A stretch of DNA of 32,000 nucleotides, from assembly GCA_964648855.1 (NCBI GenBank), contig CAZYLT010000001.1:180001-212000 (forward strand). Reading direction: 5' to 3'. The stretch is from an uncultured archaeon (GTDB lineage: Archaea; Asgardarchaeota; Thorarchaeia; Thorarchaeales; Thorarchaeaceae). A program made the position numbers and the translations under genes. Below, piece by piece: positions 13,555-32,000 of the stretch; position 1 is the first letter of the stretch, and every line of letters begins with the position of its first letter. The notes beneath the pieces are model-generated. The model searched no databases. It was not told where the DNA came from and saw nothing but the letters and a program-made list of their open reading frames with translations.

Positions 13555-14736
13555 TTATTTATCTGTTCGTTCCAAAATAGCCACAATCATATTATTTCCG
13601 AATCCGCCAATATTGTGTGTAAACCCTCTACATGCATTAGGAACCTGCAGGGCTTTAGGAGCTCCATTTATGAGTTGTAGGAAAACATCATGGATCTGAG
13701 CAACACCGGTCGCACCAGTCGGATGGCCCCGTGACTTCAGGCCTCCGGTTGTGTTGATTGGCGTCTTACCGTCAACCTCAGCATCTCCCGATTTGATTAT
13801 TTCAATGCCTTGCCCCTTTTTAGCCAGCCCCACATCCTCGATGTCAATAATCTCCAAGATGGAGAATGCATCATGCAGTTCAAATACGTCTATGTCTTCA
13901 GGGCGCATCTTTGCCATTCTGAATGCATCTCTCGCTGCTTTCACCGTTGCCGATAGAGATGTAAGGGAATCTCTGTGCTGGACTGCCAGGAAATCGGTTG
14001 CATGTCCTATTCCCTTGATTGTAGCCGAGTCGCCGATGACACCCAACGTTCTTGCTTTATCAGCAGATGCTAGTACAAGGCTGGCTGCCCCGTCGCTAGT
14101 TGGACAACAATCAAAGAGAGTAAGGGGGCTCGATACTATGGGGCTTTCGTTCACCTTTTCCACAGTAATCTCTTTTTGAAAGTGGGCTAAGGAATTTCTC
14201 GCTCCGTTTCTATGAGCCTTTACAGGAACTAGGGATAACTCATTGCGAGTGAGTCCATAATCATGCAGATATCGGCAAGCAATTAGGGCCGCCAAGGAAG
14301 CTGGTGTTGCGCCGTAGCGGGTTTCATTCTCTCTCGATATCATCTTGGCGAGGATAGCGGATGCTCGTTCACGAGAAACCTCTGACATCTTCTCCACACC
14401 GATGACCAAGACTAATTCCGCTAAACCAGAACGAATCATAGCAAAACCAGCCTCGAATGCACTTGCACCTGATGAAGGTCCGCTCTCAATACGACTCCCC
14501 CCAGCTGGAACGATACCCAACTCATCAGCCATTAGAGTCGATAAATGACCTACTCCAGTAAATTCATCGGGATTCTGAGAAGCTACGAAGATATGGTCGA
14601 TTTTTTCTCCAGATGCCTGAGAGTCCTCGAGTGCCTTAATTGATGCCTCCTTGGCGAGGTCTACAATGGATTCATCCAAGCGCCCGAAATTGGTCATTCC
14701 AGCCCCAATGATATGAACAGGTTCCAACACAACCAC
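13555..14736 (-). CDS. Thiolase-superfamily protein (SCP2/archaeal type) lacking the catalytic cysteines
   Basis: IIGAGMTNFG, DCCPTSDGAA, ELHDAF, GGLKSRGHPTGATG and HNIGG motifs. The nucleophile loop reads ESGPSSG. Confidence 0.92.
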   Translation of the reverse strand: MVVLEPVHIIGAGMTNFGRLDESIVDLAKEASIKALEDSQASGEKIDHIFVASQNPDEFTGVGHLSTLMADELGIVPAGGSRIESGPSSGASAFEAGFAMIRSGLAELVLVIGVEKMSEVSRERASAILAKMISRENETRYGATPASLAALIACRYLHDYGLTRNELSLVPVKAHRNGARNSLAHFQKEITVEKVNESPIVSSPLTLFDCCPTSDGAASLVLASADKARTLGVIGDSATIKGIGHATDFLAVQHRDSLTSLSATVKAARDAFRMAKMRPEDIDVFELHDAFSILEIIDIEDVGLAKKGQGIEIIKSGDAEVDGKTPINTTGGLKSRGHPTGATGVAQIHDVFLQLINGAPKALQVPNACRGFTHNIGGFGNNMIVAILERTDK

Positions 14737-15291
14737 CTACTCAATGAGAATCAACAAATCACTGGGTACGACAGACATGCCTGGTTCCACATTTACTTCC
14801 ATAACTTTGCCAGACTTGGGCGCCTTCAGTTCGTTGAACATTTTCATGGCTTCAAGAATGCACAGCGTATCGCCTTCTTGTACTGCATCATTGACAACAA
14901 CATGGACTTCTGTTATTTTTCCAGGCATTGGAGGGTAGATCCCGTCAGGATTCTTGGCTCCTGCGGATGACGATGGCGAGACCGGAACACGGGTATCCGC
15001 CTTCTTTGCTCGTATCCACTCTAACGTATACTCTTCACCATCTAATTGGATTGATACAGTATTGCCAGACCGTTTTAGTACTTCCACTTGGTGATCCGTT
15101 GTCCTGTCATTCACGATCCAAACGCCATCTTCTCCCTTTGTAGGTTTCATGGTAAAGCTTTGGTCACCTATTTTGACAACAACCACTCCACCCTCATCCA
15201 ACAAGTCGACCTCGACATCATAAGTCACATCGGCTAGTTTGGCTTTGTATTCAGGACTCATTGTTGACCACTTGATACGTTCTCCTATCAT
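14737..15291 (-). CDS. Biotin carboxyl carrier protein (likely start ATG 15261)
   Basis: PPMPGKI...EAMKMFNELKAPKSGKV biotinyl domain, P/S/A-rich linker and beta-rich N-terminal domain. Confidence 0.93.
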   Translation of the reverse strand: MIGERIKWSTMSPEYKAKLADVTYDVEVDLLDEGGVVVVKIGDQSFTMKPTKGEDGVWIVNDRTTDHQVEVLKRSGNTVSIQLDGEEYTLEWIRAKKADTRVPVSPSSSAGAKNPDGIYPPMPGKITEVHVVVNDAVQEGDTLCILEAMKMFNELKAPKSGKVMEVNVEPGMSVVPSDLLILIE

Positions 15292-15350: not shown

Positions 15351-16919
15351 CTATAATCGTCGTGTCTGTTCTCTTCTTCCAGAAACAGTCCATTGTGAGG
15401 CAGCTTTCGCCCATCTTCCTGCTGCCGCTTGAACAGGTTGCCTTTGTCCATCTTCGCGCCCATTTGCAGTCCACATATCTCCCGTACCAGAGGGGACAAT
15501 CGAGAACCCACCCCGTTTATTCATCATATGAAGGACCGATGCTATTATAGCAAGCTGGTCTTCGGGAGTCATTTCACCATGTTGCTTTCGTTTTGACTTT
15601 CGTACTAGAAAGTCAAGGGCGTATTGAGGATAGAGGGCGTAGGATATCTCATCGCGACGGTCATGTTCAATACCCTTCAGAGCCTCTCTCGCTTTAGGAA
15701 TCTCAGTTGAAAGCAAGCTCGCTGGGCGCTCCTCAAGGGTCTCTTCATCCCCTATGATTTTCTCTCTGATTTCGGGGTCTATTGGCGCTGGAGGTCGGCC
15801 ATATAAACCGCGAACGTACTGCTTTACTTCGTGCGGAACCATTTTGTATCGTTCGCCTGTTATAACGTTCATAGTTGCTTGAGTACCAACGATTTGAGAC
15901 GATGGCGTCACTAATGGTGGGTAACCTAAATCAGCTCGCACTCTTGGAACCTCTTGAAGGACCTCGTCATATCGGTCCAAGGCACCCTGTTCTCTAAGTT
16001 GATTGTCTAGATTTGATAGCATCCCTCCAGGAATCTGCCAGATCAGAACCTGAGGATTGACGCCCTTGAGACTGCCTTCAAATTCAGAATAATTCCGTCT
16101 GATATCTCTGAAGTAATCTGCAATCTCTGATAGGAGATTTATATCAAGACCCGTATCACGTTCTGTTCCTTTTAGAGCCTCGACAATAGATTCGACAGCC
16201 GGTTGAGAAGTTGCCATAGAGAGGGGGGAAATTGCACAGTCCACAACGTCAACGCCTGCCTCTGCCGCCTTCAAATATGCCATTGAGGCCATCCCACTGG
16301 TATAATGGGAGTGCAGCTGGATTGGGATGTCCAACTCGTCTTTCAACTTGGTAACTAGATCGTAAGCAGCAGTTGGCGTGATTAATCCTGCCATGTCTTT
16401 GATACAGATTGAGTCTGCATCTAAGGCGTACAAATCTTTGGCCTTCTCCACGAATCTCTCATTATTGTGGACGGGGCTGAGGGTATAACAGAAGCTTGCC
16501 TGAACATGTCCGCCTTCACGCTTTACGAACCGCATGGATGGTTCCATGTTTCTTACGTCGTTCAGCGCATCGAAAATCCGGAAAATATCTATGCCAGCTT
16601 TGACTGCCTCTTCTATGAATGCTTCGAGGACATCATCACTATATTGACGATACCCAACGATATTTGACCCTCTTAGTAGCATCTGGAATGGCGTCTTTGG
16701 CATTGCATCCTTTAGCTTCTCCACGCGTTCCCAAGGGTCCTCGTCCAAAAATCGCATCATGCTATCAAAAGTGGCTCCGCCCCACATTTCGAGTGAATAG
16801 TAGCCCACCTGGTCGATTGTTTCGCATATAGGTAGCATGTGCTCAGTACGCATCCGAGTCGCAATCAATGATTGATGTGCGTCACGAAGAGTAGTATCAG
16901 TAATCTTTAGTTTCGTCAT
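15351..16919 (-). CDS. Pyruvate/oxaloacetate carboxyltransferase (transcarboxylase 5S / OadA / PycB type) with no biotinyl domain and a C-terminal epsilon-like extension
   Basis: DTTLRDAHQSL, EMWGGATFD, FRIFDALND, CIKDMAG, HSH, QIPGGMLSN and PPLVTPSSQIVG motifs; no EAMKM. Confidence 0.93.
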   Translation of the reverse strand: MTKLKITDTTLRDAHQSLIATRMRTEHMLPICETIDQVGYYSLEMWGGATFDSMMRFLDEDPWERVEKLKDAMPKTPFQMLLRGSNIVGYRQYSDDVLEAFIEEAVKAGIDIFRIFDALNDVRNMEPSMRFVKREGGHVQASFCYTLSPVHNNERFVEKAKDLYALDADSICIKDMAGLITPTAAYDLVTKLKDELDIPIQLHSHYTSGMASMAYLKAAEAGVDVVDCAISPLSMATSQPAVESIVEALKGTERDTGLDINLLSEIADYFRDIRRNYSEFEGSLKGVNPQVLIWQIPGGMLSNLDNQLREQGALDRYDEVLQEVPRVRADLGYPPLVTPSSQIVGTQATMNVITGERYKMVPHEVKQYVRGLYGRPPAPIDPEIREKIIGDEETLEERPASLLSTEIPKAREALKGIEHDRRDEISYALYPQYALDFLVRKSKRKQHGEMTPEDQLAIIASVLHMMNKRGGFSIVPSGTGDMWTANGREDGQRQPVQAAAGRWAKAASQWTVSGRREQTRRL

Positions 16920-18865: not shown

Positions 18866-20458
18866 TTAGAGGGGAATATTGCCATGCTTTTTGGGAGGTC
18901 GGGTTTGTCGTTTGGTTTCCAGCATATCTAGACCCCTACAAATCAAAGGTCGGGTTTCATGGGGAAATATGACCTTGTCAATGTAGCCCAATCCCGCTGC
19001 AACATAGGGGTTCGCGAATTTCTCGCGATATTCCTTTACTAGTTCTTCTCGCTTTGCTTCCTTGTCTTCTGCCTCAGCAATCTCTTTTCTGAAGATGATG
19101 TTAATTGCACCCTCTGGCCCCATGACTGCAATCTCAGCTGTTGGCCATGCATAAACCAAATCTGCCCCTATGTGCCTTGATGACATCACATCAAAAGCAC
19201 CGCCATATCCCTTGCGAGTGACAATCGTAATCAATGGCACCGTTGCTTCTGCGAACGCATAGAGAATCTTTGCTCCGTGCCTGATAATCCCTCCCCACTC
19301 TTGTTGGGTGCCCGGTAGATAGCCCGGAACGTCCATGAATGTGATGACGGGGATATTGAAGGCATCGCAGAATCTAACGAATCTGGAGCATTTGTCAGAT
19401 GCGTTGATATCGAGTGTTCCTGCTAGATGAGCAGGATTGTTGCCCACAATACCCACCGAGCGTCCATCAAATCGAGCAAATCCAACTATCATGTTCTTTG
19501 CAAAGTGTTCATGAACCTCGAAGAATTCGCCATTATCAACAAGCTTTCTTACCAGGTCACGCATGTCATATGGCTTGTTTGGGTCATTAGGTACTAGCTC
19601 ATCTATTGATTCATCTACATCATCTGGGGCATGCCCAGTTTCCATGCGAGGAGGATCCTCCATATTGTTGCTAGGAATGAAGGATAGTAGGGTTCTAATC
19701 TGGTCGAAACAGTGCTCTTCGTCTTCACTGGCAAAATGTGCGACACCACTAGTGCTATTGTGCGTCATAGCACCACCCAGCTCCATTTTTGTCACCTTCT
19801 CTCCCGTGACGGTTTCAATGACCTGTGGGCCCGTAATGAACATATAGGCAAGGTCTTTGACCATCAGTGTAAAGTCAGTCACTGCAGGACTATATACAGC
19901 ACCGCCAGCACATGGGCCTAAGATGGCTGATATCTGAGGGATAACTCCACTGGCATGAGTGTTCCTTCGAAATATGTTTGCATATGAAACAAGGGATTTG
20001 ATACCCTCTTGGATTCTAGCCCCTGCACCATCATTAAGACCAACGAGGGGAGCACCAGCTGCCATTGCGAGGTCCATGATTTTGCACATCTTCTCTCCAT
20101 ACATCTCAGACAGAGAGCCGCCAAATACGGTAAAATCCTGACTAAAAATGAAGACCTTCCTACCGTTGATAGTCCCATAGCCAGTGACCACACCGTCCCC
20201 CAAAGGCTTCCTCTCATCCATGCCAAATTCTGTTTCCCTGTGGACAACAAATTCATCAATCTCAACAAAGGAATCAGGGTCCATCAGGCTGTCTATCCGT
20301 TCCCTGGCTGTTAGCTTTCCTTTTTCATGTTGGCGTTCAATCCGCTTTTCACCACCGCCAAGCATGGCCTTCTCTCTCATTCTTCGCAGCTCATCAAATT
20401 TGTCGTCAGTCATCTTCGACGCAACCTCTGCTCTATTCTTAGAAGGGCATCCCCTCAT
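18866..20458 (-). CDS. Acyl-CoA carboxyltransferase beta subunit (PccB/MmdA/12S family; likely start ATG 20413)
   Basis: GGGEKRIERQHEKGKLTARERI, QDFTVFGGS, GARIQEG, GPCAGGAVYSPA, DVPGYLPG and KKHGNIPL motifs. Confidence 0.96.
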   Translation of the reverse strand: MRGCPSKNRAEVASKMTDDKFDELRRMREKAMLGGGEKRIERQHEKGKLTARERIDSLMDPDSFVEIDEFVVHRETEFGMDERKPLGDGVVTGYGTINGRKVFIFSQDFTVFGGSLSEMYGEKMCKIMDLAMAAGAPLVGLNDGAGARIQEGIKSLVSYANIFRRNTHASGVIPQISAILGPCAGGAVYSPAVTDFTLMVKDLAYMFITGPQVIETVTGEKVTKMELGGAMTHNSTSGVAHFASEDEEHCFDQIRTLLSFIPSNNMEDPPRMETGHAPDDVDESIDELVPNDPNKPYDMRDLVRKLVDNGEFFEVHEHFAKNMIVGFARFDGRSVGIVGNNPAHLAGTLDINASDKCSRFVRFCDAFNIPVITFMDVPGYLPGTQQEWGGIIRHGAKILYAFAEATVPLITIVTRKGYGGAFDVMSSRHIGADLVYAWPTAEIAVMGPEGAINIIFRKEIAEAEDKEAKREELVKEYREKFANPYVAAGLGYIDKVIFPHETRPLICRGLDMLETKRQTRPPKKHGNIPL

Positions 20459-20518: not shown

Positions 20519-21385
20519 CTATGCATCGTTCATATAGGATATTTTGGCAAATCGAGCGAGATTTTTCCGTTTCTTCGCCTCTTGAACAGTCATTCCAACC
20601 AGTTCAAAACCCAGCTCTTGAGATGTCTGATCTATCCAGGTATCGCGGATATCGCGTGCCATAATGCTCGCAGCGGCGACAGCAATAACATCCTCTGCGG
20701 CCGGTTTCTGAATGAGTTCAATGGAATTCAAGTCAATTTCTCGTTCTAATCTCAATCGAGCCTTTGCCTGTGCAAATTCGTCGATTACTACCTTGATTTC
20801 TGAATCTTCTCGTCGGGCTTCAAGCTTCCTGTAGGCTTGAGATATAGCCTTTGCATGTGCCCAAGCTAACAAGTCATTGAGATTCTTTCCTTCAGCTCTC
20901 ATTTCCTTGAGTCGCTTCTCGAACGTATCAGGCGGAATCAATACGGATTCGATTGCTAGGCTGTTTCTTTCAATATCGTATGCTCTGTTCCCAATCTGAC
21001 GCGGGGTCAATTCTTTGCTATCTTGGACGCCTAGTGCTCTGAGTTCTTTGGATTGCTCTGGAGAGAGGGCTACTGCACAAACGACCAGCGGACCCAGCCA
21101 TTCACCCTTCCCAGCTTCATCAGAACCAATCACGGTTTTTCCTTCATCTGCAAAATCCATCTCCCTCAAGACCTTTCGCAGCAGCTCTATTGCCCCAACT
21201 GTATTTGCCACAACGGAACCTGTGGTGTATCCGATTATCACCCCACCGGCGTAAGCAATACGGAATACCTCATGTTTCCCCTTGGGGCGTCTTGCAAAAG
21301 TATCATCCATATCGAGTAGTGTTACTCGTACTTCATCTAAGCGGTCTTCAGGTATTCTTGCTGCGAATGGGTCCAACGTTTTCAA
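20519..21385 (-). CDS. rnhC: Ribonuclease HIII
   Basis: IGSDEAGKGEWLGPLVV, GVQDSKEL, IDEF and AAEDVIAVAAASIMAR (Glu as the fourth acid, HIII type). N-terminal TBP-like segment HEVFRIAYAGGVIIGYTTGSVV. The TTG start overlaps the birA TGA. Confidence 0.8.
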   Translation of the reverse strand: MKTLDPFAARIPEDRLDEVRVTLLDMDDTFARRPKGKHEVFRIAYAGGVIIGYTTGSVVANTVGAIELLRKVLREMDFADEGKTVIGSDEAGKGEWLGPLVVCAVALSPEQSKELRALGVQDSKELTPRQIGNRAYDIERNSLAIESVLIPPDTFEKRLKEMRAEGKNLNDLLAWAHAKAISQAYRKLEARREDSEIKVVIDEFAQAKARLRLEREIDLNSIELIQKPAAEDVIAVAAASIMARDIRDTWIDQTSQELGFELVGMTVQEAKKRKNLARFAKISYMNDA

Positions 21386-22179
21386 CTCCCCTCATGCTGG
21401 ATATGAACAATTTCTCCCGCTCGAACTCGTCGAATTCGGTCATTTTCATCTCTTACCTCTAGTGAACCATCAATACCAACGCCGACTGCCGTCCCATTCC
21501 AAGTTTCATGGGCATCTTGAACTAGAACATCTCTACCGATTGTGATACATAACGCTCTAAATTCCCTGATGATGGAGTCGTAAGAATCTTCCCTTGACAC
21601 ATTGGCTAATCTCTTGTCTGCATTATTGATAATCCCGGCAATAAGTAGTTCAATTGAGGTTGGGTAACCGAGCTCCATCTGAATCGAAGTTGTCGATTTC
21701 TGCAGTTCTTGGGGAAAATCATCCTCATTCACATTTTGATTTATTCCTACACCAAGTATAACTCCTCGAATTTGATTTCTCACTGTGACTATCTCTGAAA
21801 GAATTCCACCAAGTTTCCGCTCATTTACAATCAGATCGTTGGGCCATTTCAATCCAACATCAATATCGAACAATCCGCTAATCGCTTCTGCACAGGCACA
21901 ACCCATGAGAAGAGATAACAAAGGAAGCTCGTGACTTGCATTCTCAGGTTTTAGAATAATGGACATGTATAGGCTGCCTGCGGGAGAGTGCCATTTTCTA
22001 TCATAACGCCCTCTTCCTCTTTCTTGGTTTTTGGCAACCACAATGGTGCCCTCTTTTGCGTGTTTCTGGAGCATTTCCTTTGCAACCTTGTTTGTTGAAT
22101 CGAGAGAATCGAATACTATTAGGTCCGGGTCAATATAACTTATTTCGAGTTCAGATTTGATTAAATAGCTGTCAAGCAT
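21382..22179 (-). CDS. birA: Biotin-protein ligase (no N-terminal HTH)
   Basis: DSTN, QERGRGRYDRKWHSP, KWPND, KLGGIL and GVGIN motifs. Confidence 0.96.
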   Translation of the reverse strand: MLDSYLIKSELEISYIDPDLIVFDSLDSTNKVAKEMLQKHAKEGTIVVAKNQERGRGRYDRKWHSPAGSLYMSIILKPENASHELPLLSLLMGCACAEAISGLFDIDVGLKWPNDLIVNERKLGGILSEIVTVRNQIRGVILGVGINQNVNEDDFPQELQKSTTSIQMELGYPTSIELLIAGIINNADKRLANVSREDSYDSIIREFRALCITIGRDVLVQDAHETWNGTAVGVGIDGSLEVRDENDRIRRVRAGEIVHIQHEGS

Positions 22180-29591: not shown

Positions 29592-30002
29592 CTATTCTTC
29601 GGGCTTTTCACAAAGTTCAATCAACACACCATGTGTAGATTTTGGATGAACAAACGCTACCTGCTTGCCCCGTGCTCCTTTCCTTGGCTCAGTATCTATT
29701 ACCTTCAAATTGGCCAAACGATGAGCCTCAAGAGTTTCTCCAATCGATTCTACATCAAGTGCTATGTGATGAATTCCTTCACCGTATTTGTCAATGAACT
29801 TCGCTACTGTTCCAGATTCGTCAAGAGGTTCGACGAGCTCAATTGCACTCTCGCCAATTCCAAGGAATGCAACTCTGACCTGCTGTGCTTCAACGGTTTC
29901 TTCTCCGCGAAACTCCAGCCCCAAAACATCTCTGTAATATGGCAAGACTTCTTCAATACTCTCTACAGCAATGGCAATGTGGTCAATCTTTGTTTGTTTC
30001 AT
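29592..30002 (-). CDS. mce: Methylmalonyl-CoA epimerase
   Basis: IDHIAIAV, IELVEP, GEGIHHIA and FVHPKSTHGVLIEL motifs; adjacent to the mutase gene. Confidence 0.95.
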   Translation of the reverse strand: MKQTKIDHIAIAVESIEEVLPYYRDVLGLEFRGEETVEAQQVRVAFLGIGESAIELVEPLDESGTVAKFIDKYGEGIHHIALDVESIGETLEAHRLANLKVIDTEPRKGARGKQVAFVHPKSTHGVLIELCEKPEE

Positions 30003-30015
30003 TTCTCATCATTCT

Positions 30016-31695
30016 CTACAATATATCTGGAGCAGTATACTCCCCGAAGGCATCCCTAAGAACCCCACAAATCTCTCCAAGAGTGGCATAGGCACGAACT
30101 GCCTCTAAAATATGTGGAAATAGATTGGCATCCGTTTTGGCCGCCTCTAATAAACGGTCCAGTTTCTCACGAACTAGTTTTTTGTTTCTATTCTCTTTCA
30201 TCTCCGTAAGACGCTTTAGCTGGTGAGTTTCTATATCTGTGTCGACCCGAAGATAGTCGAAGTCTTGCTCTTCTTCCACCGTAAACTGATTCACTCCCAC
30301 AATAATCCTATCGTCAGTATCTACGGCTTTTTGGAATTCATACGCGCTCTTGTGAATCTCTTTCTGGATGTAGCCATTTTGCGTTGCTTGGGCAGCTCCG
30401 CCCATAGCATCAATTTCCTCCACATACTTCTGAGCCGCTTCTTCAATCTCGTTGGTAAGATGTTCGATGTAATAGGAACCTGCAAGCGGATCAATTGTAC
30501 TGTCCACACCTGTTTCATAGGCAATTATTTGCTGTGTCCGTAAAGCAATCTGAACCGACTGCTCTGTAGGTAACGAGAGTGCCTCATCTCGGGAGTTGGT
30601 GTGCAACGACTGAGTGCCTCCGAGTACTGCCTGAAGTGCTTGAAGAGTTACTCGAATGACATTGTTGTCCGGTTGCTGTGCAGTAAGGGTGCACCCTGCA
30701 GTCTGAGTGTGAAATCTCATTCTGCAAGACCTGTCCTTTTTGGCACCAAATCGCTCTTTCATGATACGCGCCCAAAGTCGTCTTGCTGCTCTGAATTTGG
30801 CTATTTCCTCAAAGAAATCACTGTGTGAACCGTAGAAAAATGATAACCGGGAAGCAAAGTCATCAACGTCGAGACCAGAATCGATTGCAGCCTGGACATA
30901 TGCTATACCATTGGCAATAGTGAATGCCATTTCCTGAACAGCAGTGCATCCCGCCTCTCGCATATGGTAACCTGAGATTGAAATCGTGTTCCACCGAGGA
31001 ACATTTTCAGCACAGTACTTGAATACGTCTGTAATCAAACGCATGGATGGTTCGGGTGGAAAGATATAGGTCCCGCGAGCTGTGTATTCCTTCAGAATAT
31101 CATTTTGAATTGTTCCAGTAAGCTTTTCGGGGGGTATCCCTTGCTTCTCCGCGACTGCTATGTACATCGCAAGAAGAACGATAGCGGGGGCATTGATTGT
31201 CATGGAAGTACTGACTTTGTCTAGGGGAATAGAATCGAAGAGAATCTCCATATCAGCAAGAGAATCGATGGCGACTCCAACCTTTCCCACCTCACCCAGA
31301 GAGAGCTCGTGGTCTGAATCATATCCAATTTGAGTGGGCAGGTCAAATGCAACTGATAGACCAGTCTGTCCCTGTTCGAGAAGAAACTTGAAACGCTTGT
31401 TTGTTTCAGTGGCTGTGGCAAATCCGCTGTACTGTCGCATGGTCCAAAGACGACCACGGTACATAGTCGGTTGCACGCCTCTAGTGAATGGGAACGCTCC
31501 TGGAAACCCTAAGTCCTCTTTGTAATTCAACTCGGTAATATCCAGTGGAGTGTATAGGCGGTCAATTTCTTTTCCAGAGAGATTTCTAAATGCTTCTTTG
31601 CGCTCAGGATATTTGCTTATTGTTTTCTCAAGCGTATTTTTCTCCCAGTCGCCCTTAATCGATCGTATTTCTTCTAGGTCACCCATCAATCCCAC
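30016..31695 (-). CDS. Methylmalonyl-CoA mutase, catalytic subunit (split type, no B12-binding domain)
   Basis: WTMRQYSGF (Tyr), [24 protein letters not shown] (Arg), [10 protein letters not shown] and GGTQSLHTN. The Tyr/Arg pair indicates MCM rather than isobutyryl-CoA mutase. Confidence 0.96.
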
Positions 31696-32000
31696 TACTC
31701 CCTATGCTTCACAAGGAATTTGGTAATCAGTCGTTCAGCCACTGTATATGGGTCTTCTGACCGCGATGCAATCTTTTTGATTGCATTTTCGTATTCTGGA
31801 CTACCACGGAGCTTGGTAAGCAGCTCCAATGTCAGCTTGTACTCCATCAGCTGCTCCAGTTCTTCTTGACTTCGCTTTAGTCCTTTGTCTGCCATTCTTC
31901 CGCTGGTCTTGAGATACTCAATGTGTTCTTCAATCTTATCAACAAGTTTAGGTACCCCCTCACCAGTCCTAGCATTTGTCAGAACTACAGGAGGACGCCA
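31695..32000 (-). CDS. meaB: MeaB/ArgK GTPase chaperone, C-terminal part (runs off the right edge)
   Basis: Frame open from 32000: [30 protein letters not shown]...DPYTVAERL. Its TAG overlaps the mutase GTG by 1 nt. Confidence 0.85.

Follow-up and report, generated by a model that had tools for sequence, protein, structure and literature searches.

The DNA analyzed here (the window) is a stretch of 32,000 nucleotides from an uncultured archaeon of the Thorarchaeaceae (Asgardarchaeota), comprising positions 180,001 to 212,000 of contig CAZYLT010000001.1 (assembly GCA_964648855.1). Unless a locus handle is given, positions are those of the window. On its minus strand lies the gene of a carboxyltransferase of the PycB/5S type, followed by the gene of a biotin carrier; further upstream, a carboxyltransferase of the 12S/PccB type is encoded on the same strand. 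The 5S-type protein possesses a C-terminal tail, whose conservation, relatives and possible role in the assembly of a biotin enzyme are the subject of this study.

The tail of the 5S-type carboxyltransferase

A Pfam scan of the 522-residue protein detected HMGL-like and PYC_OADA domains, which stop at about amino acid (aa) 449, and no biotinyl domain after that point, the position at which PycB/OadA enzymes carry one. The NCBIfam model PRK09282 gave 745 bits on the catalytic part, and the alignments with the NCBIfam and Pfam models of OadA, PycB and the transcarboxylase 5S subunit reach about residue 450. The NCBIfam 5S model covers aa 3-448, while its last 45 positions remain without alignment to the tail. 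With the tail alone, no Pfam or NCBIfam match was obtained. Its middle is of low complexity, and inspection of the sequence revealed no hydrophobic stretch of transmembrane length. The genome contains a single copy of the PYC_OADA gene. The last 73 residues (M450-L522) begin with Met450, encoded by the ATG at 15572-15570, and end before the stop codon at 15353-15351; sequence and coordinates of the tail had been given correctly in the original prediction. No stop codon before position 15572 interrupts the frame, either in the assembly or in any of the orthologues that were read.

A six-frame search for the tail was performed in 60 related genomes, 36 of which belong to the Thorarchaeaceae. In 33 of these 36 the tail is present, each time inside a stop-free frame of 500-560 aa, and in all genomes read it is fused to a 5S-type carboxyltransferase. 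The fusion noted in the window is thus conserved in the family, which argues for more than a chance extension of the gene. In an alignment of 30 distinct family tails (A1), residues G448, A457, L463, W510, G514 and R515 are invariant, and H464, W483 and W503 are conserved in at least 90% of the sequences. The helix of small hydrophobic residues (T451-M466) and the last W-x3-G-R motif are the best-conserved parts of the alignment; its middle is variable. Measured against the window copy, identity across the family amounts to 23-67% for the tail and to 75-84% for the catalytic part.

In three other Asgard families, 5S homologues of 60-65% identity carry a shorter tail, composed of a helix (T-P-E-x-L-A-A-I-T-A) and a single motif of the form S-P-W-x-L-A-G-R-x-E-x-M. 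As this short form, with its helix and single Trp motif, aligned to A1 with 96.4% in hhalign, the core module consists of the helix and one W motif. The first W-x3-G-R motif is absent from two short-tailed genera and from the other Asgard families, and for this reason the presence of two such motifs in the Thorarchaeaceae looks like a lineage-specific duplication. Within the family, the copies at L030:1552-1794, L032:1539-1715 and L035:349-525 have lost the first motif or retain it in a degraded form, while the helix and the last motif are kept. These copies fit with the first motif being dispensable.

According to the original prediction, the module might also be made separately from the ATG at 15572. 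A methionine occupies the position of M450 in 20 of the 30 tails of A1 but is absent there from all six short tails that were read in other families; a conserved internal start is therefore unlikely, and the idea finds no support. The Shine-Dalgarno-like sequence GGTGA, situated 1 nt from this ATG, was dismissed as a ribosome-binding site because of its spacing and because it is dictated by conserved Gly-Glu codons. Gene calls of 77-78 aa starting at the internal Met exist (P0004, P0005, P0018); they are located on contigs of 1.4-2.1 kb.

Small adaptor proteins and the neighbouring biotin carrier

An exhaustive search with the tail profile in 1.84 billion representative sequences matched only nine proteins which, apart from fragments of the same enzyme, form two groups. 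The first comprises proteins of 105-108 aa (P0007 and P0010), matched at E 2e-4 (P0007) and 1e-3. They possess an N-terminal hairpin like that of the 1.3S/MmdC carriers, a helix and two W-x-L-x-G-R-x2-L-M motifs. In the second group (P0008 and P0009, 135-138 aa), an OadG-like transmembrane helix is followed by the same module. Comparison of A1 with the alignment of the small relatives (A3) by hhalign yielded 97.4% over 73 columns at E 1.5e-11. The tail helix is aligned to an Ala-rich helix in both the PccX-like and the OadG-like proteins, and an equivalent of W503 is present in the Methanocellales and OadG-like relatives. The terminal W motif is common to the short Asgard tails, the PccX-like proteins and a bona fide OAD_gamma protein at locus L067. 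P0010 and its relatives are encoded in Methanocellales operons in the order PccB, small protein, BCCP, biotin carboxylase.

The OAD_gamma protein at L067, an Asgard member of this family (35.4 bits vs a cut-off of 27), is encoded beside an OAD_beta gene. It contains an Ala-rich helix and ends with S-P-W-V-L-A-G-R-R-E-L-M. In hhalign comparisons its W motif reached 94.9% with the short Asgard tails and 71% with A1, though these values refer to only 15-17 columns. The tail itself gave no match to OAD_gamma (PF04277) in the Pfam scans. Judged by the kinship to P0007/P0010, P0008/P0009 and the L067 protein, the tail is one of a class of small adaptors, some of which are free proteins (PccX-like), some part of a membrane anchor (OadG-like) and some, like the tail, fusions to a carboxyltransferase.

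The original prediction had classified the tail as epsilon/PccX-like, which is correct in part. Kinship to stand-alone subunits of acyl-CoA carboxylases is borne out by the hhalign comparison and by P0007, which carries the precomputed Pfam assignment PF26062, named PccX in the Atlas output; the same protein matches the MmdE model weakly (E 1.7e-4). Membership in ACC_epsilon (PF13822), on the other hand, was not confirmed. Two of the 30 tails matched this family below threshold (best E 0.0066, 17.5 bits vs a cut-off of 25), and in the window's own tail Pfam found no match to it. The ESM Atlas scores, all of them at most 0.82, provide leads only, including one cluster at 0.77 of which 34% of the members are labelled PccX. 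When 351 genomes of the phylum that includes the Methanocellales were searched with profile A2, only four solid matches were obtained, besides two off-frame ones in GC-rich genomes; this profile did not reach haloarchaeal PccX.

Some matches were discarded. Those of the tail profile to Myb-like (Terfa) and antibody sequences of the PDB were weak (E 0.007 and above); they arise from the spacing of Trp residues and were taken as chance. With the profile of the small relatives, no match below E 0.2 was obtained among PDB sequences. L033 and L034, from other Asgard families, are roadblock/LC7-like proteins that match a short stretch only, and the W motif was matched 28 times in P0002, a tandem-repeat protein of 1477 aa, which was considered repeat noise. 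Two loci found in the course of these searches deserve mention in their own right. In a Methanocellales carboxylase operon (L040:2461-5564), the biotin carboxylase carries a fused biotin-protein-ligase domain (712 aa), and a second BirA gene, bearing a helix-turn-helix domain, is located 3' of this fusion. The Asgard genome G060 possesses an OadG-type anchor with a W motif beside OAD_beta (L067:1447-3181) and in addition a short-tailed 5S protein (L063). The core of 12S subunit and carrier of this organism might serve both a Na+ pump and a transcarboxylase.

In the 20 loci with enough flanking sequence, the gene of the biotin carrier (14737-15261 in the window) always follows directly after the tail gene. 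The last 70 residues of the carrier form a standard biotinyl domain, with fold matches to BCCP domains at Z 9-11. Since this domain dominated the fold search with the whole carrier, the N-terminal domain was folded alone. Its first 85 residues were modelled as eight strands (AF2, pLDDT 85), for which Foldseek returned BT domains of human propionyl-CoA carboxylase (PCC) alpha as top matches (TM 0.78, root-mean-square deviation (rmsd) 2.0 Å, 85 columns), followed by BT domains of ACC and MCC. In an independent all-against-all alignment with VIA-align, the BT barrel of yeast ACC (617-696) ranked first (Z 8.8, rmsd 1.7 Å over 80 residues), the runner-up having a Z of 5.3; the aligned region comprises the barrel only. 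These matches were given by the fold search only. By sequence, a profile of the domain found nothing in the PDB, and the Pfam match to PCC_BT (PF18140) reached only E 0.13. A BT domain consists of a central helix, a hook and an eight-stranded barrel (PMC5059739). According to the model, the carrier N-domain is an eight-stranded up-down barrel of the BT type. No helix precedes the barrel, and thus the carrier has the barrel part only. In the Asgard families with short tails, the carrier possesses an N-terminal beta extension of roughly 100 aa.

The start of the carrier gene merits a remark. The longest open reading frame (ORF) begins 10 codons upstream, at ATG 15291, and thus includes window positions 15262-15291. 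All 20 carrier orthologues share a conserved M-S-P-E-Y start, which in the window lies at 15261, and the real protein probably comprises 174 aa. In most relatives the carrier starts within a few bases of the 5S stop codon; the gap in the window is about 90 nt.

When the complex of carrier N-domain and tail was predicted, the ipSAE score was 0.57 in all three runs, compared to 0.02 for the best of three controls, and the pairing was rated as weakly supported. The runs shared at least 94% of their contacts, and the partner had a pLDDT of 48-49. The calibration set contained 80 solved complexes, of which 58 attained the mark, and 110 mismatched pairs, of which 2 did so; among these passing cases, only 7 solved complexes, but both mismatches, scored at most 0.60. 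This pairing was the one complex modelled, and it makes the biotin carrier, with weak support, the best-supported partner of the tail. According to the original prediction, the tail tethers the 5S-type to the 12S-type enzyme; such a tether may exist, but the carrier's BT-like barrel is the only partner backed by computation.

Enzyme identity and gene context

The genome (94.6% complete) contains one 12S-type and one 5S-type carboxyltransferase, while neither a biotin carboxylase nor OAD_beta was found in it. Among 41 genomes of the family, none contained Biotin_carb_C and none had OAD_beta over the Pfam cut-off, whereas control genomes were positive in both cases. The 12S gene was detected in 37 of the 41 genomes. 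It often adjoins the 5S gene and in several relatives (e.g., G003, G018, G028) is located directly upstream of it. In one genome, the 12S gene (G033:C4:48830-50246) is interrupted by three in-frame TGA codons and split into two matches; it could be a pseudogene or an assembly error. With 12S-type and 5S-type carboxyltransferases and a biotin carrier, the parts required for a transcarboxylase are all recognizable by sequence. As the family lacks a detectable biotin carboxylase, and OAD_beta over the cut-off as well, its gene content points to a transcarboxylase (EC 2.1.3.1 type), in agreement with the original prediction. An interpretation of the gene set as an Asgard propionate pathway was published in 2020 (PMC7015854). 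Hence, the function as such is known and the proposed mode of assembly is what is new. In the literature searched, we found no description of the fused-tail architecture, no structure of a transcarboxylase holoenzyme and no description of haloarchaeal PccX.

The features of the locus are compiled in Table 1. In addition, a thiolase-family gene (13555-14736; NCBIfam PRK06064, 413 bits and thus just under the cut-off of 420) begins at the base next to the stop codon of the carrier gene. Due to this arrangement it is probably co-transcribed with the transcarboxylase genes. Of two paralogues of the methylmalonyl-CoA mutase large subunit, which are about 15 kb apart, only the first (30016-31695) is located in the window; the other lies at G000:C1:225599-227143.

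Table 1. Genes and sequence elements of the transcarboxylase locus (window positions)
Feature	Position	Strand	Basis or remark
5S-type carboxyltransferase ORF	16919-15351	minus	522 aa; PycB/5S type
Catalytic part, aa 1-446, pyruvate/oxaloacetate carboxyltransferase (5S/PycB/OadA type)	15579..16919	minus	Pfam HMGL-like and PYC_OADA; NCBIfam PRK09282
Putative adaptor tail, H447-L522, and stop codon	15351..15578	minus	conservation; hhalign to PccX-like/OadG-like small proteins
Helix of small hydrophobic residues, T451-M466	15522..15569	minus	most conserved part of A1 together with last W-x3-G-R
First W-x3-G-R motif, W-T-A-N-G-R, W483-R488	15456..15473	minus	W at least 90% conserved in A1
Lone conserved Trp, W503	15411..15413	minus	at least 90% conserved in A1
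Terminal W-x3-G-R-(R/K) motif, W-T-V-S-G-R-R, W510-R516	15372..15392	minus	W, G and R invariant in A1
BT-like barrel of biotin carrier, N-terminal, eight-stranded (predicted), aa 1-85 from MSPEY start	15007..15261	minus	AF2 model, Foldseek, VIA-align
Carrier linker, biotinyl domain (E-A-M-K-M motif) and stop codon	14737..15006	minus	Pfam Biotin_lipoyl 3e-17
12S/PccB/MmdA-type acyl-CoA carboxyltransferase	18866..20458	minus	Pfam Carboxyl_trans 1e-199; TIGR01117 853 bits
Biotin protein ligase (BirA type)	21382..22179	minus	Pfam BPL_LplA_LipB and BPL_C
Methylmalonyl-CoA epimerase-like gene	29592-30002	minus	Pfam Glyoxalase_4
Methylmalonyl-CoA mutase	30016-31695	minus	Pfam MM_CoA_mutase 779 bits
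End of MeaB	31695-32000	minus	Pfam MeaB

Proposed assembly of the complex and comparison with known systems

It is rather likely that the tail, fused to the subunit on the pyruvate side, acts as an adaptor in the assembly of a methylmalonyl-CoA:pyruvate transcarboxylase, with the helix in the carrier barrel and the W motifs directed to the 12S subunit. In such a complex, helix T451-M466 would enter the carrier's N-terminal eight-stranded barrel, which is of the BT type, and two chains would thereby rebuild the BT domain that PCC alpha holds in one chain. The Trp/Gly-Arg segments after the helix would stand in for the BT 'hook' in making contact with the 12S (PccB-type) core. The resulting complex would correspond to a PCC-type holoenzyme whose biotin carboxylase is replaced by a second carboxyltransferase. 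For the insertion of the helix into the barrel, the predicted complex provides weak support; the W motifs may, by analogy, hook the 12S core. That a BT-like domain can be formed by separate chains is evident from two solved systems. In the two-subunit pyruvate carboxylase, the C-terminal helix of the alpha subunit is wrapped by strands of two beta subunits, and deletion of this helix or the exchange A465R abolishes the holoenzyme (PMC5059739). In the LCC complex of mycobacteria, AccE has its N-terminal helix enclosed by hairpins from four AccA3 subunits and its C-terminal hairpin anchored in the AccD hexamer (PMC13012033). AccE had been proposed as a stand-in for the missing BT helix in 2011 (PMC3199775).

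Several observations weigh against this assembly. The tail has no detectable sequence similarity to the BT helices of PCC or ACC or to any solved chain, and its kinship to AccE rests on a Pfam match below threshold. The carrier of the Methanocellales has a single N-terminal hairpin and no barrel, so the socket is a different one there. The fold of the tail is uncertain, its pLDDT being below 50. Moreover, the prediction reports no contacts, and a score of 0.57 does not tell which part of the tail touches the barrel. Finally, this score falls into the weak band, where according to the calibration of the tool most passing pairs are false unless there was good prior reason to expect them. In the present case, the prior for a pairing of tail and barrel is raised by the helix-less barrel and by the gene order.

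An alternative that is rather unlikely, yet deserves consideration, is that the tail binds the 12S (PccB-type) subunit directly and alone, without any involvement of the carrier, as has been thought of the actinobacterial epsilon subunit and haloarchaeal PccX with their beta subunits. In its favour, the genes of the tail's stand-alone relatives come directly after PccB, AccE does anchor in the carboxyltransferase hexamer with its C-terminal part (PMC13012033), and the genes for 12S, 5S with tail and carrier form one string in several relatives. However, direct binding would leave the helix-less BT barrel of the carrier without a helix, and the N-terminal helix of AccE, in the complex that has been solved, is bound to the subunit bearing the carrier and not to the beta subunit (PMC13012033). 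It is also at odds with the sub-threshold ACC_epsilon matches and with the complex prediction, in which the only computed support, albeit weak (0.57), is for the carrier as partner.

It is improbable that the tail serves the 5S subunit itself, either in oligomerization, like the PT domain of pyruvate carboxylase, or in regulation, without linking subunits. The tail is indeed located where PycB/OadA have a PT or association segment, and the alignment with PRK14040, an NCBIfam model of an OadA subfamily, extends to aa 507. Nevertheless, the module also occurs on PccX-like and OadG-like proteins that lack any carboxyltransferase, and it is always accompanied by a carrier with an N-terminal hairpin or barrel. 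There is very little to recommend the view that the tail is a functionless, decaying linker left after the loss of a fused biotinyl domain: it does evolve faster than the catalytic part (23-67% vs 75-84% identity) and has a low-complexity middle, but Trp, Gly and Arg residues are invariant and the helix is conserved over 16 genera and four Asgard families, and homologous free-standing proteins are kept in other operons. Docking of the enzyme on a membrane Na+ pump, making the system an oxaloacetate or methylmalonyl-CoA decarboxylase, can practically be discarded even though the module is found on OadG-type anchors beside OAD_beta in another Asgard family, since OAD_beta was neither found in the 94.6% complete genome nor, over the cut-off, in any of the 41 family genomes, and the tail has no transmembrane segment.

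Starting from the split BT domain proposed for tail and carrier, a broader scheme is conceivable, which we regard as a tentative proposal with less than even chances. One plug-and-socket system would build very different biotin enzymes, and the Asgard transcarboxylase would be a PCC-type holoenzyme in which the ATP-using domain was swapped for a second carboxyltransferase. The plug would be a helix of small hydrophobic residues together with a W-x3-G-R hook, the socket the BT-type strands on the biotin carrier. The same core of 12S subunit and carrier could then recruit biotin carboxylase through PccX/AccE, a Na+ pump through OadG/MmdD or, through the fused tail, a pyruvate carboxyltransferase. 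Under such a scheme, the assembly of this transcarboxylase would have arisen independently of the Propionibacterium enzyme.

Transcarboxylase is the textbook example of a biotin enzyme that works without ATP. To our knowledge, how it is assembled is understood, and this incompletely, for the Propionibacterium enzyme alone. Should tail and barrel indeed form a split BT domain, Asgard archaea would run transcarboxylase chemistry on a scaffold of the propionyl-CoA carboxylase type, and the relocation of a small adaptor would be a way for biotin enzymes to exchange half-reactions. A single adaptor class with a testable binding mode would then embrace three poorly understood small subunits: PccX, the cytoplasmic part of OadG/MmdD, and possibly AccE and MmdE. 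It would also give a structural handle on the propionate pathway, from which the metabolism of eukaryotes' archaeal relatives has been inferred (PMC7015854).

Of the known systems, the PccX-type subunits (P0007/P0010) share with the tail the helix, W-x3-G-R-x2-L-M, a lone Trp and a second W-x3-G-R in that order, as well as the linkage to a PccB-type carboxyltransferase and a biotin carrier. What separates them is that they are free proteins of 100-110 aa with an N-terminal hairpin of their own, whereas the tail is fused to a pyruvate carboxyltransferase. Besides, they serve an ATP-dependent carboxylase that includes a biotin carboxylase, a component which was not found for the enzyme of the tail. 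PccX is a small free gene next to pccB; the tail, by contrast, is the C-terminus of an enzyme of 522 aa, although its free relatives do follow PccB. As to OadG/MmdD (OAD_gamma, PF04277), the member at L067 has the Ala-rich helix and the W-x-L-A-G-R-R-E-L-M end in common with the Asgard 5S tails, and P0008/P0009 join an OadG-like transmembrane helix to the full module. Unlike the tail, however, OadG/MmdD proteins are membrane anchors with an N-terminal transmembrane helix and are encoded beside a pump subunit.

AccE (PF13822) follows a logic that the tail may share, namely an N-terminal hydrophobic helix wrapped by hairpins of the carrier subunit and a C-terminal anchor in the carboxyltransferase (PMC13012033). 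Its anchor is a helical hairpin, though, while the tail has Trp/Gly-Arg motifs, and AccE is a free subunit of an ATP-dependent acyl-CoA carboxylase, while the tail is fused in all genomes read. With the BT domains of PCC, MCC and ACC, the carrier N-domain shares the barrel fold. In PCC, helix, hook and barrel follow the biotin carboxylase in one chain, whereas in the proposed complex the helix would be contributed by the carboxyltransferase; for a helix from another chain, the two-subunit pyruvate carboxylase (PMC5059739) is a solved precedent.

The transcarboxylase of Propionibacterium freudenreichii (12S, 5S, 1.3S) has the same three functional parts and likewise no ATP-using component, and the biotinyl domain of its 1.3S subunit matches the Thorarchaeon carrier at Z 9.7. 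In the bacterial enzyme, the short N-terminus of 1.3S glues the 12S and 5S subunits together. The enzyme of the Thorarchaeon differs from it in possessing a carrier with a full, predicted BT barrel and a 5S subunit with a putative adaptor tail.

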